Of a stretch of DNA of 64,000 nt, positions 11,802-41,918 are shown piece by piece. This DNA is from Alphaproteobacteria bacterium (GTDB lineage Bacteria > Pseudomonadota > Alphaproteobacteria > UBA828). A program made the position numbers and the translations under genes. Every line of letters starts with the position of its first letter. Positions within the stretch are counted from its first letter, which is position 1. The notes under the pieces were generated by a model. It was not told the DNA's origin. It did no database searches and saw nothing but the letters and a program-made list of their open reading frames with translations. Location: assembly GCA_963667785.2 (NCBI GenBank), contig CAXXMU010000002.1, positions 608,001-672,000 of the forward strand. Reading direction: 5' to 3'.

Positions 11802-12599
11802 ATGGCAGGCACGGCGCTGCTCGGCCCGGGCGACCCGCCGCCCTTCGATTCGCTGAACACGCGGAGCACCTCGCGGGCGCTCGTCGTCTGCGACCATGCG
11901 AGCTGCCGCATACCGGCCGCGCTCGGCAACCTCGGCGTGAGCGAGGCGGAGCGCATCGAGCACATCGGCTGGGACATCGGCGCCGCGGCCGTGGCGCGGC
12001 GGCTCAGCGCGCTGCTCGGTGCGCCGGCGATCCTCGCCGGTTACTCCCGCCTGGTGATCGACTGCAACCGGCCTGAGGCGGCGCCGGACAGGATCCCGGC
12101 GGAAAGCGATTCGGTGCCGGTGCCGTGCAACGCAAACCTGGACGAGGCGGCGGTGGAGGCGCGCATCGCGGCGATCTTCACTCCCTATCACGACGCGATC
12201 CACGACGCCCTGGAGCGGATGTGCGCGCGCGGCGACGTGCCTGTGCTGATCGCGGTCCACAGCTTCACCCCGCAGCTCGCGGGCGGCGAGCCGCGCCCGT
12301 GGGAGATCGGTGTCTGCTGGGACAAGGACCAGCGCATGTCGGCGCCGCTGATCGAGCGCCTGCGGGCCGACGGGATCAACGTCGGCGCCAACGAGCCCTA
12401 CGACTTCGGCGTCCTCACCGACTACACCGTGCCGATCCACGCCGAGAGCAGGGGGCTGCCCTCGCTTCTCGTCGAGATCCGCAACGACGAGATTCGCACG
12501 CCCGCGGAGATCGAGACCTGGGCGCAGCGCCTCGCCCGCCACATCCCCGCACTGCTGGCCCTGCCGGAGACGCAGCGTATCGAACACGCCACCGGGTAG
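11802..12599 (+). CDS. N-formylglutamate amidohydrolase family protein
   Basis: CDHAS, HIGWDIGA, YSRLVIDCNR, HSFTP, NEPY, EIRND. Confidence 0.9.
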   Translation: MAGTALLGPGDPPPFDSLNTRSTSRALVVCDHASCRIPAALGNLGVSEAERIEHIGWDIGAAAVARRLSALLGAPAILAGYSRLVIDCNRPEAAPDRIPAESDSVPVPCNANLDEAAVEARIAAIFTPYHDAIHDALERMCARGDVPVLIAVHSFTPQLAGGEPRPWEIGVCWDKDQRMSAPLIERLRADGINVGANEPYDFGVLTDYTVPIHAESRGLPSLLVEIRNDEIRTPAEIETWAQRLARHIPALLALPETQRIEHATG

Positions 12600-12636
12600 C
12601 GCCGCAGCGGGAGGGCGACGCGCCGTTCCCTTTTCA

Positions 12637-12726
12637 CGCTACGGCCGGATTCGTTCCGGCCATCCACGAGTTTTCGTGTAGCAGGGGCAAAGAACGTGGA
12701 TGCCCGGAACGAGTCGGGGCATGACG
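12637..12726. repeat. Inverted pair of REP-like palindromes (CGTCATG..CCG..TCGTTCCGG.CATCCACG family)
   Basis: 12637-12668 is an imperfect inverted repeat of 12695-12726; lies between convergent genes; related sequences at 15711, 33341 and about 51735. Confidence 0.75.
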
Positions 12727-12750
12727 TGTCACGTTGATAGCCGCGTTCGG

Positions 12751-13476
12751 TTATTCGAAGGGCAGGGGAGCGAGGGCCTCGCCGCTCGGCGGGCGGCGGA
12801 AGCGCTGCAGCAGGTAGCGCCGGAGGAACTCTTCCTCCCACTCCCTGGTGCGCTTGATCGCCAGAGCGATCTCCGGCTCCTCCATCGTCATCATCACGAC
12901 GTAGGCGTAGTTCTCCGCGGCCGCGCCGACCTCCCGCAGGTTGGTCTCCGGGTCGCCGGCGATGATCGTCGCCGTGCTGAGCAGGAAGAGCGCTTCCACG
13001 TCGTCCTTGAGCACGCCGAGGCCGCGCGCGTAGAGCACGCCGAGGTTGAAGCGGCTCGCCGCGTCGTCCTGCGCGCCGGCGCGGGCGAACCAGTCGGCCG
13101 CCACCGCATAGTCGCGCTCGACGCCGAGGCCGCCGGCATAGATGGTGCCCATGTTGAACTGGCCGGTGACATCGCCCTGCTCGGCGGCGAGCCGGGTCCA
13201 GTGCAGCGCCTTCGCATGGTCGACCGCAACGCCCTGGCCGTGGATGTAGAGACTGCCGAGCGCCGCCTGGGCCCGCGCGTCGCCTGCCTCGGCGAGCGGC
13301 GTCCATGCCTCGAGCGCAGCCGCGATGTCGCCCCGCTCGTAGGCTTCCTGGCCGCTCTCCCAGTCGGCAAGGGCGCTGCCCGGCGCCGGCGCCATCACGG
13401 CGAGGCCTACGGTGAGGGCGAGCGCCAGCGCGGTCGCCGCCCGTCGCAGGCCGTGCCGCGCGCGGCGATCCTTCAT
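12751..13476 (-). CDS. Secreted Sel1-repeat (TPR-like) protein
   Basis: Signal peptide, then AQAALG.LY..GQGV..D, GQFNMG.IY..GLGV..D and FNLGVLY..GLGV repeats; ATGA overlap with the guaA stop. Confidence 0.85.
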
Positions 13477-15017
13477 TCCCATTCGATCGTCCCCGGCGGT
13501 TTCGAGGTCACGTCGTAGACCACGCGGTTGATACCCCGCACCTCGTTGACGATACGGTTCGCGACGGCGCCGAGGAAACCCATGTCGAAGTGGTAGAAGT
13601 CGGCGGTCATGCCGTCCGCCGAGGTGACGGCGCGCAGCGCGCAGACATGCTCGTAGGTGCGCGCATCGCCCATGACGCCCACCGTGCGCACCGGCAGCAG
13701 CACCGCGAAGGCCTGCCAGATGGCGTCGTAGAGCCCGGCGTTGCGTATCTCCTCGATCAGGATCGCATCGGCCTGGCGCAGGATCGCGAGCTTCTCCTCC
13801 GTCACCTCACCGGGAATACGGATCGCAAGCCCCGGGCCGGGGAAGGGGTGGCGCCCGGTCAGCGCCTCCGGCATGCCGAGGGCGCGGCCGAGCGCGCGCA
13901 CCTCGTCCTTGAAGAGCATGCGCAAAGGCTCGACCAGCTCGAGGTTCATCCGCTCCGGCAGCCCGCCGACATTGTGGTGCGACTTGATGACCGCGCTCGG
14001 GCCGCTGACCGAAACCGATTCGATCACGTCCGGATAGAGGGTTCCCTGGGCCAGGAAGTCGGCATCGTCGGCGCTCCGCGCGGCCCGCTCGAACACGTCG
14101 ATGAAGGTGGTGCCGATGATGCGGCGCTTCTCCTCGGGCTCGGTGATGCCGGCGAGCCGTTCCAGGAACGCGGCCCTCGCGTCCTCGTGGACGAGCGGGA
14201 TGTTGTAGTGGCCGCGGAAGAGCTCCGCGACCTCGTCAGCCTCGCGCTCGCGCATCATGCCGGTATCGACGAAGACGCAGGTGAGCTGCTCGCCGATCGC
14301 CTCGTGCAGCAGCACCGCCACCACCGACGAATCGACGCCGCCCGAGAGCCCGCAGATCACCCGGCCTTCGCCCACCTGGGCGCGGATCGCCTCGACGGCG
14401 CTGACGCGGAACGAGGCCATCGACCACTCGCCGCGACAGCCCGCGACGCGGCGCGCGAAGTTCTCCAGTAGCGCCGCCCCGTGGGGGGTGTGCACCACCT
14501 CGGGGTGGAACTGGATGCCGTAGAAGCCGCGCGCGTCGTCGGCGATCGTGGCGAAGGGGGCCGAGTCGGTTCGCGCCACAACGCGAAAGCCGGCCGGCAC
14601 CGCCGCCACCGCGTCGCCGTGGCTCATCCACACCTGCTCCCGCGCGCCCACCGGCCAGACGCCGTCGAACAGCGCGCAAGGCTCCACCACATCGAGGAAG
14701 GCGCGCCCGAACTCGCGCTGGCTCGCGGATTCGACCGCGCCCCCCAGTGCCGCGCACATGGCCTGCTGGCCGTAGCAGATGCCGAGCAGCGGAATACCGA
14801 GCCGGTAGAGGCCCTCGTCCGGCCGCGGCGCCTCAGCCTGCGTCAGCGATGCCGGGCCGCCCGAGAGGATCACGCCCTCGGGCGCCAGCCGCTCGATCTC
14901 GGCCGCCGGCACGGAGAAGGGGCGGATCTCGCAATAGACCCCGGCCTCGCGCACGCGCCTCGCGATGAGCTGTGTCACCTGCGAGCCGAAGTCGAGAATC
15001 AGGATCCGCTCGGTCAT
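13473..15017 (-). CDS. guaA: GMP synthase (glutamine-hydrolysing)
   Basis: [48 protein letters not shown]. Confidence 0.98.
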
Positions 15018-15106
15018 GAATCACCGTCACACGGGGCCCCGACCGGCGCAAGATCGGCCAGATCGGGCGAAGCGTTCGCCGCTGCCGGCGGAAGGCGTAT
15101 GCTGTG

Positions 15107-15257
15107 CTAGAGCGTATCCGTCTTTGACGGATACGCGACAGGCCGCGACTGCGGCCCGCCGTCTATGCGGCGCGCCCGCGCAGGCGCCGGCCGCAGGCCG
15201 GCTGCCGTGAGCGACAAAGAGGCTGGAGCGTTTCCGTGTAGAGCGGACACGCTCTAG
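15107..15257. repeat. ~150-bp CTAG-bounded multi-hairpin dispersed element, copy 1 (MITE/RIME-like)
   Basis: Terminal IR CTAGAGCGT...ACGCTCTAG; close second copy at 40300-40449. Confidence 0.88.
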
Positions 15258-15285: not shown

Positions 15286-15522
15286 ATGGAGCGATGCAGC
15301 CCGCACGCATGGCGCACGCCTGTGGCAGGCGATTCGGCGCTCGTCTGCGACGTGTGCGAGAGCCGGCTCGATCTCGTGTCCGAGATCACGCCGGCGGTGC
15401 AGGCCGACATCCTGCGGGATTACCGCCGCCGCTGCGGCCCCATCGTCGGCCAGCACTTCGAGGAGGCGCTGGAGGCGGCGCTCGCCGAGGCGCGGCGGCG
15501 CGCCGGGAGGCGGGGCGGCTGA
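15286..15522 (+). CDS. Hypothetical small protein with C-x2-H...C-x2-C pattern
   Basis: Strong RBS (GAGGAGGGAGG), GC3-rich codon usage, 78 aa. Confidence 0.55.
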   Translation: MERCSPHAWRTPVAGDSALVCDVCESRLDLVSEITPAVQADILRDYRRRCGPIVGQHFEEALEAALAEARRRAGRRGG

Positions 15523-15740: not shown

Positions 15741-16046
15741 CTATGCCGCCGACTGCCTCGGCGTAACCCGTTCGTCTATCTCGCGGCCCCTGGCAATCTC
15801 GGCCCGCCGCAGCTCCCATGTCTTCTGCAGGTTCATCCAGAGTTGCGGAGTCGTTCCGAAATACCGCGCCAGCCTGAGCGCCGTATCCGCGCTCACCCCC
15901 CGCTGGCCGTTGAGGATCATCGTGATCCGATTCACCGGCACGCCCAGCGACTTCGCCAGCTCGTTCGCTGACAGGCCGAGCCCGGCGATCTCCTCGCGAA
16001 GGATCTCACCTGGGTGCACCGGCCGCATTCCGTTCCGGACAGTCAT
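15741..16046 (-). CDS. higA: HigA-family antitoxin (XRE HTH)
   Basis: PVHPGEILREE, LGVPVNRIT.ILNGQRGVSADTALRLARYFGTTPQLWMNLQ. Confidence 0.93.
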   Translation of the reverse strand: MTVRNGMRPVHPGEILREEIAGLGLSANELAKSLGVPVNRITMILNGQRGVSADTALRLARYFGTTPQLWMNLQKTWELRRAEIARGREIDERVTPRQSAA

Positions 16047-16057
16047 GTTCGCACCCC

Positions 16058-16336
16058 TCAGTGGTAGTCGACGATCTCCACGTCGGATGGGCCTTCGTCA
16101 GTCCAGCGAAAGCAAATGCGCCATTGCACGTTGACTCGAATGCTGTGCTGCCCCTCCCGGTTACCCCGCAACGCCTCCAGCCGATTGCTCGGCAAGGCGG
16201 CGAGGTCCCGAAGCGATTCGGCTGCATCAAGAAGTGCAAGGCGCCGCGCCGCCTGATCGGCGAACCCCTGAAATGCCGAGACGCGATGACCTTCGAAGAA
16301 GCGCTGCGTGTCCCGTCCCTTGAAGCTTCGAATCAT
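16058..16336 (-). CDS. higB: HigB-family (RelE/ParE superfamily) toxin
   Basis: MIRSFK, PSNRLEALRGNREGQHSIRVN.QWRICF.W, EIVDYH; toxin-first order. Confidence 0.93.
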   Translation of the reverse strand: MIRSFKGRDTQRFFEGHRVSAFQGFADQAARRLALLDAAESLRDLAALPSNRLEALRGNREGQHSIRVNVQWRICFRWTDEGPSDVEIVDYH

Positions 16337-39121: not shown

Positions 39122-40285
39122 TCAGTCTACATTGGACGCACAGGCGGAGCCCGATCTTGGAACCAGCACCCGCCCCTCCATCAGGCGACGTGCGGTGCGG
39201 GTGACGGTGAGGCGGGCGAGGCGGGGCGGATCGGCGGCGGCGAGTTCGACCCCGACCGCCGCCCGGCCCGAGGGATGGCCGAGGCGGACGGGGGCATCGG
39301 CCGCCGCGCCGGGGTCGGCCGGCCGGGCCGCCTCGACGGCGAGGGTTCCGGGGATGCGCGCGGCTGCCGCCAGCGCCAGCGCCGCGGTGAGAGGCAGCGC
39401 CCGGTGCGCGCGGCCCATGGAGATGACGCGGGCGGAGAGATCGACCGCATCCGCCGCAAGCCGCGCGCCGCTCAGCGTCTCCGCGTCGGCGGGCGGGGCG
39501 ACGAAGCCCACCTTGGGCACGCTCGCGGTCTCCGGCGCGAGGCCCATGGCCGCCGCGGCGGCGCGGCGGATCCCCTCCAGCCGCGCACCCAGCGCGGCGT
39601 CGCCCTCGATCGCCGCCGGCGGCTCGATACCCGCGAGGCCCAGGTCGGCCGCGCGGACGACGACCACGGCAGTCGCCGCGTCGATCAGCGTCGCCTCGAT
39701 GGCGCCCGTGCCCGGCACCTCGAGGGCGTCCCGGGCGCGGCCGGTCGGCAGCAGGCGGCCGGTGACGGCGCCGCCCGGCTCCAGGAAGGAGAGGGCGATG
39801 GGCGCGCCCCGGCCGGCGACGCCGTCGAGCACGGTCTCGCCCGCCACCGCCGCGCGGCCTCCCGCTACCGGGAAGCGCGCTTCGATGCGCTGGTCCAGGT
39901 TCTCGTTGTGGAGGGTGAGTACCGCCTCGCCGTCCGCCGCCTGCACCAGCCCCTCGTCCACCGCGAAGTGGCCCACGGCGGCGGTGAGGTTGCCGCAGTT
40001 GCTGCGGTAGTCCACCAGCGCCTGCCCGACCGCTACCTGGCCGAAGAGGTAGTCCACGTCCACGCCCGGCCGCGCGCTCGGGCTCACTACCACGACCTTG
40101 CTGAGCGACGAGATGCCGCCGCCCATGCCGTCGAGCTGGCGGCCGTGCGGGTCGGGGCTGCCGAGGGCGGCGAGGAAGAGCGCGTCCCATTCGGCGCGCT
40201 CGGCCGGGAGGTCGCGGCGGTGGAAGAAGAGGCCCTTGCTGGTGCCGCCCCGCATGAAGACGGCGGGCAGCGCGATCTGGCTCAC
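39122..40285 (-). CDS. PrpF/AcnD-accessory family isomerase
   Basis: MRGGTSKG, GSPDP..RQLDGMGGG.SS.SK, NCGNL, GHPSG, RTARRLMEG. Confidence 0.9.
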   Translation of the reverse strand: MSQIALPAVFMRGGTSKGLFFHRRDLPAERAEWDALFLAALGSPDPHGRQLDGMGGGISSLSKVVVVSPSARPGVDVDYLFGQVAVGQALVDYRSNCGNLTAAVGHFAVDEGLVQAADGEAVLTLHNENLDQRIEARFPVAGGRAAVAGETVLDGVAGRGAPIALSFLEPGGAVTGRLLPTGRARDALEVPGTGAIEATLIDAATAVVVVRAADLGLAGIEPPAAIEGDAALGARLEGIRRAAAAAMGLAPETASVPKVGFVAPPADAETLSGARLAADAVDLSARVISMGRAHRALPLTAALALAAAARIPGTLAVEAARPADPGAAADAPVRLGHPSGRAAVGVELAAADPPRLARLTVTRTARRLMEGRVLVPRSGSACASNVD

Positions 40286-40299
40286 CGCGATCCCGCCCG

Positions 40300-40449
40300 C
40301 CAGAGCGTATTCGTCTTTGACGGATACGCGACAGGCCGCGACCGCGGCCCGCCGCTCATGCGGCGCGCCCGCGCAGGTGCCGGCTGAAAGCCGGCTGCCG
40401 TGAGCGACGAGGAGCTAGAGTGCTTCCGTGTGACACGGATGCACTCTAG
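40300..40449. repeat. ~150-bp multi-hairpin dispersed element, copy 2
   Basis: Aligns along its full length with 15107-15257; its terminal CTAG contains the TAG stop of the upstream minus-strand gene. Confidence 0.88.
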
Positions 40450-41918
40450 CGCAGGTTCCTGCGCGCCGCCGCGTCGCGCCCGGCGATCCGGCCGAAGACC
40501 GCGCCCCGCATCACCGAGGTGGAGCCGGTATAGGTGCGGTAGTAGAGCCCGGCGGTCTCGCCGGCGGCGTAGAGGCCGGGAATCGCCTCGCCGTCAGAGT
40601 CGAGCACCCGGGCGGAGGGGTCGATCTTGAGCCCGCCGAAGGTGAAGCAGTTGGCGGCGATGATCGGCCAGGCGCGATAGGGGGGGCGGTCCACCGGCCT
40701 CGCCCAGTTCGACTTCCGGGGCTCGAGGCCGGCCGTCTCCAGGCCGTCCGGCGCGAGCGGGGCGAACCCGTCCTCGGCCGGGCAGGCGGCGTTGTAGGCG
40801 GTAAGCGTGCCAGCCAGCCCCGCGCCGTCGATGCCGAGCGCGTCCGCCAGCGCGGCCGGGGTCTCCGCCTCCACCGGCGGCTGGTCGGTCCGCACCGCCT
40901 TTCGCCAGTTGGGCACGTCGTCGAGCCGCGCGTCGGTGACGGCAAACGCGATGCCCTCGGTCTGCGCCATGATCCGCCGCGACGTGGCCTCGTAGGTCGC
41001 GTCCACCGTGGCCGGCGCCTCGTCGGTGAAGCGCCTGCCTTCGCGGTTCACCAGAATGCCGTAGGTGTAGTTGAGCACCACCGGCTCGTGCCGGCCCGAG
41101 CGCGGATCGACCGGCTGGGCGTGGAAGCTGCCGTAGTCGCCGCAGGGGGCGGCGCCGATCTCGAGCGCCATGCGGATGCCCTCGCCCCGGTTGTAGTAGC
41201 CGCCGCGCGCGACCGGGCGGATGAACTGGCTCTGTGGGCCGAGATAGCGGCTCAGCATCTCCGGGTTGCCCTCGAAGCCGCCCGACGCCAGCACCACTGC
41301 GCGTGCGTTCAGCCTGAGCCTGCGATTGCCGGCGCCGCTCGCCTCGATGCCATTCACCCGGCCCGCCTCGTCGAGGGAGAGGCGCCGCGCCGTCGTCTCG
41401 TAGCGGACGGCGATCCGCTCCGGCACCGATTCGGCATGGGCCGCCAGCGCCTCCACGAGCGCGAGGCCGCCGCCCGCCGGCGCCATGCGGGTGGTGCTCT
41501 CGGTGATAAAGTAGTTGGGGAGGAAGTCGAAGGCGACGCCGAAGCCGCTGAGCCAGCGGAGCGTCGGCCCGGCGTTCTCGGCGAGCGTCGAGACCAGCTC
41601 GGGATCGACGAAGCCGAGCCCGCGCAAGAGCCGGGGCCAGGCGTCGTAGGGCTTTGCGCTCTCTCCGATCACCGCCGGGTCGGGGTGGCCGCCGGCGTTC
41701 TCGGCGAATCGGTCCCAGAAATCCTCCGAGACCTCGTCGTGGCTCCGCATGCGCCAGAAGGATTCGGTGTAGCGGGTGTTGCCGCCGCGCTCCTCCCTCG
41801 GCGCCCGCTCCAGCAGGGCGACCCGCGCGCCCGCCTGCTGCGCGCTCACCGCGGCCGAAAGCCCGGCGATGCCGCAGCCCACCACGATCACGTCGTAGCC
41901 GTCGTCCCCGCTCGCCAC
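40446..41918 (-). CDS. FAD-binding dehydrogenase, TcuA (tricarballylate dehydrogenase)/flavocytochrome c-like
   Basis: YDVIVVGCGIAG, RGGNTRYT, VLASGGFEGN, KSNWA, FTFGGL, PGLYAAGE. Confidence 0.8.
   Translation of the reverse strand: MASGDDGYDVIVVGCGIAGLSAAVSAQQAGARVALLERAPREERGGNTRYTESFWRMRSHDEVSEDFWDRFAENAGGHPDPAVIGESAKPYDAWPRLLRGLGFVDPELVSTLAENAGPTLRWLSGFGVAFDFLPNYFITESTTRMAPAGGGLALVEALAAHAESVPERIAVRYETTARRLSLDEAGRVNGIEASGAGNRRLRLNARAVVLASGGFEGNPEMLSRYLGPQSQFIRPVARGGYYNRGEGIRMALEIGAAPCGDYGSFHAQPVDPRSGRHEPVVLNYTYGILVNREGRRFTDEAPATVDATYEATSRRIMAQTEGIAFAVTDARLDDVPNWRKAVRTDQPPVEAETPAALADALGIDGAGLAGTLTAYNAACPAEDGFAPLAPDGLETAGLEPRKSNWARPVDRPPYRAWPIIAANCFTFGGLKIDPSARVLDSDGEAIPGLYAAGETAGLYYRTYTGSTSVMRGAVFGRIAGRDAAARRNLR

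Follow-up and report, generated by a model that had tools for sequence, protein, structure and literature searches.

Introduction

Repeats of the Bru-RS and RIME families carry TAGAGC ends. Bru-RS1/2 of Brucella and RIME/Sm of the rhizobia are described as palindromic intergenic repeats of 100-120 bp which, like the element studied here, occur in dozens of copies, have a conserved secondary structure and are of unknown function (PMC2267715, PMC10800456, PMC2573895). CIR1-4, the CcrM-associated intergenic repeats of Caulobacter with relatives in Brucella, are also similar by description, being alphaproteobacterial and intergenic, with TA termini and with independently folding arms and a linker (PMC2229807). 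However, CIR repeats are given as about 110 bp long with a conserved GANTC at the loop (PMC2229807), whereas the present element is at least 150 bp long and has a three-hairpin core as its linker. GANTC is absent from its consensus, and the 17 of 48 copies that contain one carry it at scattered places or within an insert. The mobility mechanism of such two-armed TA repeats was stated to be unresolved (PMC2229807).

TA ends and target duplication are also described for RUP of Streptococcus pneumoniae and for Correia/NEMIS, which are IS630-type MITEs (PMC2229807, PMC10969869). RUP was tied to IS630-Spn1 by the likeness of their ends, the same kind of evidence as is used below (PMC2229807), and inversion has been reported for Correia (PMC2229807, PMC10969869). 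By these descriptions RUP and Correia are A+T-rich and fold end to end, whereas the element here is G+C-rich and forms local hairpins. A preference for CTAG is known for IS870 (PMC13630536). The bcr1 repeat of the Bacillus cereus group, non-autonomous and about 155 bp long, has a cruciform-like fold kept by compensatory changes, but it is reported with 5-bp direct repeats, in another phylum, and was shown to be transcribed (PMC3184786). GTAG/CGTC-tagged REPs are hairpins that, as here, are overrepresented close to 3' ends and between genes that converge; unlike the element, they are described as 20-40 bp long and without TIRs (PMC3733652), and the genomes that carry the element are without a Y1/RAYT-type enzyme.

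We analysed a 64,000-nucleotide stretch of alphaproteobacterial DNA (the window), in which two copies of the element had been noticed from the letters alone. The original prediction left open whether it was a non-autonomous mobile element or a structured RNA, and suggested an undescribed family. Rfam searches, at the gathering threshold and at E-value level, returned nothing relevant, the best score (24 bits) being far below threshold. The mostly open-access literature that was searched, which included text of a MITE census (bioRxiv 10.1101/2024.01.18.576219), contained no description of the family or of its core. The suggestion thus agrees with the lack of an Rfam match, but the kind of element, a two-armed TA-flanked alphaproteobacterial repeat and MITE, was already described. 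The separation from CIR, Bru-RS and RIME is based on their descriptions and not on their sequences.

Results

Two copies of a five-hairpin element in the window

Both copies were found at the places and in the shared orientation first proposed (Table 1). They are, however, only two of 75 in the genome, and copy 2 is not purely intergenic, its right end being the TAG stop (40446-40448) of a TcuA-like gene. The description as CTAG-bounded suited one end of copy 2, but this copy starts with CCAG and the boundary common to the family is TA. DNA folding recovered all five hairpins in both copies, with z = -6.5 and -7.5 for copies 1 and 2 and no equally good fold among 200 shuffles. The proposed differences between the stems were also correct: C-G/T-G in H1, loop only in H2, T-G/C-G in H3, C-G/T-A in H4, and the compensated pairs C-G/T-A and T-A/C-G in H5. 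The stem of H4 had been described properly, but its longer bulged extension (element positions 71-107) had been missed. The two copies differ at 23 of 151 aligned columns, and copy 1 differs from its nearest copy in the genome at 4 of 151.

The outer arm of H1 is the IS630-like end of the element, and H5 is itself bounded by two CTRG/CTAG words. Copy 1 lies inside the predicted 5' leader of a 78-aa ORF, directly behind a conserved TATGCT word (15099-15104), a candidate promoter element; a sigma-70 scan found no site. The ORF matched no Pfam family at the cut-off, and two Cys pairs are located near its start. Besides the repeat, the summed contig depth peaks at positions 12468-12935 and 15744-16211 of the window, which suggests other repeated or highly conserved sequence.

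Table 1. Coordinates of the two copies, their parts and their neighbours in the window, and loci of the tRNA-linked cores.
Feature	Position	Strand	Remark
Copy 1, full 151-bp element	15107..15257	+	both TA dinucleotides and outer C/G included
Left TA, predicted target duplication	15108..15109	+	family left ends (n=64): T 52, A 56
H1, left end hairpin	15112..15136	+	4/11 pairs changed on both sides
Conserved ~80-nt core of copy 1	15140..15218	+	covariance model R1, 93.5 bits
H2 of copy 1 (core)	15141-15156		
H3 of copy 1 (core)	15157-15172		
H4 with bulged extension, copy 1 (core)	15177-15213		followed by A-rich tail
H5, right end hairpin	15223..15257	+	7/15 pairs changed on both sides
Right TA, predicted target duplication	15255..15256	+	family right ends (n=51): T 38, A 47
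78-aa ORF, family unassigned	15286..15522	+	start region alignable in 15/15 relatives
guaA, GMP synthase	13473..15017	-	divergent neighbour of copy 1
Copy 2, 150-bp element	40300..40449	+	left boundary CCAG
Core of copy 2	40333..40411	+	covariance model R1, 87.3 bits
H5 of copy 2	40415..40449	+	two compensated pairs
TcuA-like FAD-dependent oxidoreductase	40446..41918	-	366 bits vs cut-off 369
PrpF-family isomerase gene	39122..40285	-	starts 14 bases beyond copy 2
tRNA-linked cores	L486, L492, L498 (G138), L496 (G039), L500 (G123)		att-like remnants

A short, dispersed, non-coding family

The genome of the window, hereafter G000, measures 4.09 Mb and is 98% complete; the other G-numbers refer to comparison genomes and the L-numbers to loci. 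A profile search of G000 returned 84 hits that do not overlap, of which 75 had E<1e-6 and 48 were full length. The full-length copies measure 149-208 bp and share on average 90% identity with the majority sequence (n=48), the closest pairs differing at 4 of 151 columns. Variants of 165-208 bp contain one of two inserts within the core. No copy is located inside a called gene, and the family is non-coding, short and dispersed, with about 70% G+C. Its boundary keeps a TA and, next to it, GAGCG, while the base outside the TA varies (C at 38 of 64 left ends, G at 37 of 51 right ends). The terminal inverted repeats are present but imperfect: over the outer 15 positions, 84% of cells pair.

Of the other genomes, 18 of 20 in the genus and 23 of 48 in the order contain the family. 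Exact-pattern scans for the G000-type end matched one GTDB record, in a set possibly without near relatives, and gave no match in viral contigs. Such scans of metagenomes returned nothing in one case and 101 stretches in a later one. No match to the element was found in 72,556 plasmid records, a set rich in rhizobia.

Some further observations concern repeats and CTAG sites in G000. A second family, bounded by TA-GAGCA and about 226 bp long, is represented at C2:94327-94552, C6:449682-449907 and about 13 other places. Its hairpin cargo is of another kind, purine/pyrimidine-rich, and its ends are like those of the other IS630 subgroup of the genus. At C5:24702 and C5:25153 it adjoins the 151-bp family or is nested with it. 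At C2:348990-349180, upstream of a tRNA-like gene, a CGTC-type REP-like dimer is found within a broken second copy that adjoins a full one. CTAG is scarce, with 1,378 sites in 4.09 Mb, despite which TAG accounts for 32% of called stops. The ends of the element often read CCAG or CTGG, as if CTAG decayed after insertion.

Empty sites and the TA boundary

Both sites of the window are empty in relatives, as expected of a mobile element. The site of copy 2 is empty at 11 of 11 relative loci, six of which show a single TA-containing stop there, and that of copy 1 is empty in 15 of 15 relatives and on one contig of public run X4. A systematic search was performed on 184 full copies (42 own, 142 foreign), 74 of which gave an alignment spanning the junction; 20 of these passed a filter for gap-free alleles at 70% identity. 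In 16 of these 20 alleles a single TA was found at the predicted place, a count open to gap-placement bias as the queries had the TA built in. Among three empty alleles on public-run contigs, one had the TA (TAG) and two did not. The first exception is the copy 1 site in run X4, where the 4-bp gap has the expected length but reads TCCG, with TCC replacing CTA plus the element; two relatives show the akin GCCG. In the other exception, CAAG is found within a locally diverged stretch. Apart from the exceptions, copy 1 among them, the empty alleles agree with an element that probably inserted with duplication of a TA target.

Insertion sites and orientation

Site statistics were calculated on our own gene calls (3,530 genes in G000). 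A stop codon is present at an end of 39 of the 48 full copies, compared with 403 of 1061 non-coding CTAG sites (p=3e-9), and in 8 full copies both ends are stop codons. Moreover, convergent genes flank 42 of 74 copies, an arrangement shown by 475 of 3,516 gene pairs, and 30 of 49 stop-overlapping copies are convergent where 35% would be expected (p=2e-4). Since duplication of TA preserves a TAG or TAA stop, survival bias would suffice to produce the stop-codon pattern; retention for a function at 3' ends would give the same pattern.

Orientation relative to transcription is even (14 vs 15). GC skew on these contigs was too weak for orientation to be read against it. At shared sites that include G000, 6 copies have the same and 5 the opposite orientation, and between other named genomes 15 have the same and 1 the opposite. 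These counts would fit vertical inheritance among close kin and repeated use of few sites across larger distances. One stop-codon junction carries the element in opposite orientations in two genomes (G000 C2:348849 and G018 C1:2547188), and opposite orientations at a shared junction were likewise seen for L316 and C2:775811 and for L299 and C6:113665. Such junctions reflect either independent insertion or in-place inversion. In-place inversion is not needed as a general explanation: in most opposite pairs the two copies sit at different bases, and a 6:5 split is what independent insertion would give. It is possible at two or three exact-base cases.

A candidate transposase of the IS630 family

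Of the 21 genomes of the genus, 16 have genes for IS630-type DDE enzymes. One subgroup consists of 1.05-kb elements with two ORFs, present in G008, G011 and G012 and scoring above the NCBIfam IS630 cut-off; it is annotated as IS630 in plasmid relatives and is TA-bounded at five different sites. Its ends (L023, L026 and L040) match those of the element at 20-21 of 24 bases, with 13 of 13 for L026. As a background, 15 of 39,316 TA-started 24-mers reached 20 matches in 1.84 Mb of G018, a count that includes G018's own copies of the element. Other IS630 subgroups reached at most 16-17 of 24, and 10 IS5-type loci at most 15 of 24. The two ORFs of the best-matching element (L026:1387-2436) are joined by a run of nine A, which we take to be the usual sign of programmed frameshift.

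These IS630 elements and the repeat have like ends, a TA boundary and a preference for CTAG in common; the repeat differs in containing no transposase sequence and in having both ends extended into hairpins. In the 30 IS630 loci, the core had no match except in separately inserted copies. By its ends and boundaries, the element is thus most likely an IS630-type MITE, and the mobile half of the original prediction agrees with the empty sites, the TA boundary and the IS630-like ends.

An autonomous element with the same ends was not found in G000: of 39 TAGAGC..GCTCTA pairs within 2.5 kb, the short ones are members of the second repeat family, whereas those further apart appear accidental. Neither tblastn nor family searches detected an intact IS630 transposase in this genome, where one 27-bit remnant was found, even though some copies of the element differ at only 4 of 151 bases. 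IS630 is also absent from the carriers G020 and G009 and from all 5 distant carriers. In G011, which has the best-matching IS, only 1-2 copies of the MITE occur. Loss of the cognate IS, or failure of a multi-copy IS to assemble, could explain these absences. Two other enzyme routes were rejected. HUH/RAYT (Y1) enzymes number none in G000 and occur in 1 of 49 genomes of the order, that one being a non-carrier. The gene of the IS5/IS427-type route is absent from G000 and present in 7 of 21 genomes of the genus, and the ends mismatch.

Covariation of the local hairpins within the genus

Covariation was assessed on extant sequences, with shuffles, slid partners, re-paired columns and disjoint pairs as controls, which correct for relatedness only in part. 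Changes on both sides were counted at 13 of 52 pairs among 30 copies, in H1, H4 and H5, compared with 0 of 500 shuffles and at most 7 for slid partners. H2 and H3 are nearly invariant within the genus (0 of 12 pairs changed on both sides). Disjoint pairs of the 48 own copies gave 8 compensated differences in H1, 6 in H4 and 15 in H5, and 0 of 5,000 re-pairings did so. The predicted covariation of the local hairpins was thus found once more copies were aligned. The minimum-energy RNA fold of copy 1 (z about -6) pairs end with end, unlike the local hairpins. This end-to-end stem was rejected as the conserved fold for want of covariation: 3 of 15 pairs were changed on both sides, a count reached by 435 of 500 shuffles.

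Between 15 pairs of same-site copies, the difference per site is 0.014 in core stems and 0.285 in core loops, 0.11-0.12 in end stems and 0.13 in linkers. When only G/C columns are considered, paired positions differ at 0.020 and unpaired ones at 0.136. Several unpaired core bases are fixed. The end hairpins therefore drift yet stay paired, as hairpin repair could produce, and the core is nearly fixed. Copies at one site trade subfamily variants, and the apparent conservation of stems may be inflated by gene conversion. Comparison of G-T with A-C changes picked no strand, with 11 vs 13 in the ends and 3 vs 1 rare states in the core. The earlier claim that the fold is under selection is consequently backed, as regards constraint, by covariation with controls; the fold may act as RNA or as DNA, and the compensated changes of H1 and H5 may stem from selection or from hairpin repair.

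No intrinsic terminator site was predicted on either strand of copy 1; an A-rich run follows the core on the + strand. In G000, copies without H5 retain an intact core, and several of them stop exactly at the inner CTA word.

An ~80-nt core found beyond the genus

Outside the genus, only positions 34-112 of the query match. Each of the three helices shows covariation among 45 cores of the order (14 of 27 pairs, 0 of 500 shuffles), that of H2 and H3 becoming visible only once distant genomes are included, and RNAalifold recovers the same three helices. Unpaired bases, namely a bulged T and a G-A opposition, are invariant in 45 of 45 cores. A covariance-model search with strict filters, covering 140 other members of the class at one genome per family, detected the core in 7 of them. 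Among 25 class-wide matches, aligned by fitting to the model, 21 of 27 pairs covary. At least 8 other families retain the helix lengths, bulges and spacing of the core. In G000 the model matches only the present family.

The surroundings of distant cores vary. Some are inside TA-hairpin shells of other sequence, and G028 has six tandem cores with an 88-bp period and no end hairpins. Apparently the same convergent junction carries a single core in two sister-family genomes (L458 in G025, L459 in G027) and the six tandem cores in a third (L439/L467 in G028). At 4 of 23 distant loci the core lies 0-11 nt behind the 3' end of a tRNA, on the opposite strand, and at three of these four the other flank of the core carries a degenerate repeat of the tRNA end. 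The tRNAs concerned are tRNA-Ser, -Ala, -Met(cat) and -Val, and L496 and L500 contain a second core in tandem, partial or full. In the ORF lists, no frame long enough for an integrase was recognised next to the tRNA-linked cores. This distribution suggests that the core may be older than its shell and that its fold may have a job of its own.

Discussion

We consider it probable that the element is a non-autonomous MITE with 75 copies, likely moved in trans by an IS630-family transposase and carrying the older ~80-nt core as cargo. The TA boundaries, the empty sites and the ends of one IS630 subgroup, all directly observed, would be accounted for if a transposase supplied in trans bound the end sequences and inserted the element at TA, preferably within CTAG, with duplication of the TA. 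As regards the position on stop codons, likewise seen directly, insertion on a TAG or TAA stop would leave the gene intact, and copies on stops, chiefly between convergent genes, would survive purifying selection. A few hundred usable sites would thus be hit repeatedly, in either orientation, and the core would then be co-transcribed in 3' untranslated regions from either strand. For the core, the direct observations are the covarying hairpins and its occurrence elsewhere. It may persist because its fold acts at RNA 3' ends, as a nuclease barrier or processing signal, or because it aids spread. Our best guess from these analyses is a putative RNA 3'-end barrier or processing signal, about as probable as a role at the DNA level. 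A role at RNA 3' ends has been proposed for other MITEs and REPs, as described in PMC2229807 and PMC3733652.

A bolder reading, which we hold only tentatively and regard as doubtful, is that the core is a hitherto undescribed module of structured nucleic acid in the Alphaproteobacteria, older than its carriers and under selection, which rides unrelated vehicles and whose bulged bases would form a putative protein-binding or recombination signal. Its vehicles would be TA shells of the IS630 type, tandem arrays, and att-like units placed behind the 3' ends of tRNAs.

It is unlikely that the core is instead the primary unit, namely a structured module of single-stranded DNA or RNA with its own spreading route, recognised by a putative host or element protein and only sometimes enclosed in an IS630 shell. 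Several of the results point in this direction: the restriction of matches beyond the genus to the core, shells that differ in sequence between families, the six shell-less tandem cores, the tRNA-linked cores, the invariant unpaired bases and the many carriers without IS630. However, no carrier in the order has an HUH Y1 transposase, the ORF lists beside the tRNA-linked cores show nothing of integrase size, every full copy in the genus has a TA shell, and slippage can make arrays.

The explanation as an ordinary neutral MITE, in which paired changes arise from template-switch repair of palindromes and from gene conversion while the fold is unselected, appears highly improbable for the whole element. 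It would account for end hairpins that diverge at about the linker rate while still pairing, for the lack of strand bias and for the exchange of subfamily variants between same-site copies. As an account of H1 and H5 alone, neutral repair is about as likely as selection. It fits poorly with the core, whose stems barely vary while its loops do, also in G/C columns only, whose helix lengths, bulges and spacing are kept across families, and which is intact where an end hairpin is gone.

Finally, a family of small RNA genes or of riboswitch-like cis-regulatory RNAs, and not mobile DNA, is hardly credible: the fold is strong and covaries, and contigs of one RNA library cover the repeat (share 0.06, although contigs cannot show a discrete transcript), but presence at orthologous sites is patchy, the ends are TA, either orientation occurs, the neighbours are unrelated, and with 75 scattered copies in both orientations to transcription and no Rfam match the stand-alone structured RNA of the original prediction was not borne out.

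For the preferred explanation, an IS630-type MITE with an older core, the consequences are of two kinds. A family with CIR-like layout now has empty sites and a named candidate transposase, so that the link can be tested directly. The interiors of MITEs are usually expected to drift. The more surprising part is therefore a core whose fold is kept across families while it changes vehicle. If the core acted neither on RNA nor on DNA, the family would be one more MITE. If it acts on DNA, it would point to an unrecognised recombination signal, and an action on RNA ends would mean that about 2% of G000 genes carry an imported 3' structure. Should the module reading be true, dozens of gene ends in each genome would be supplied by MITE shells with a ready-made device for RNA 3' ends or for recombination.
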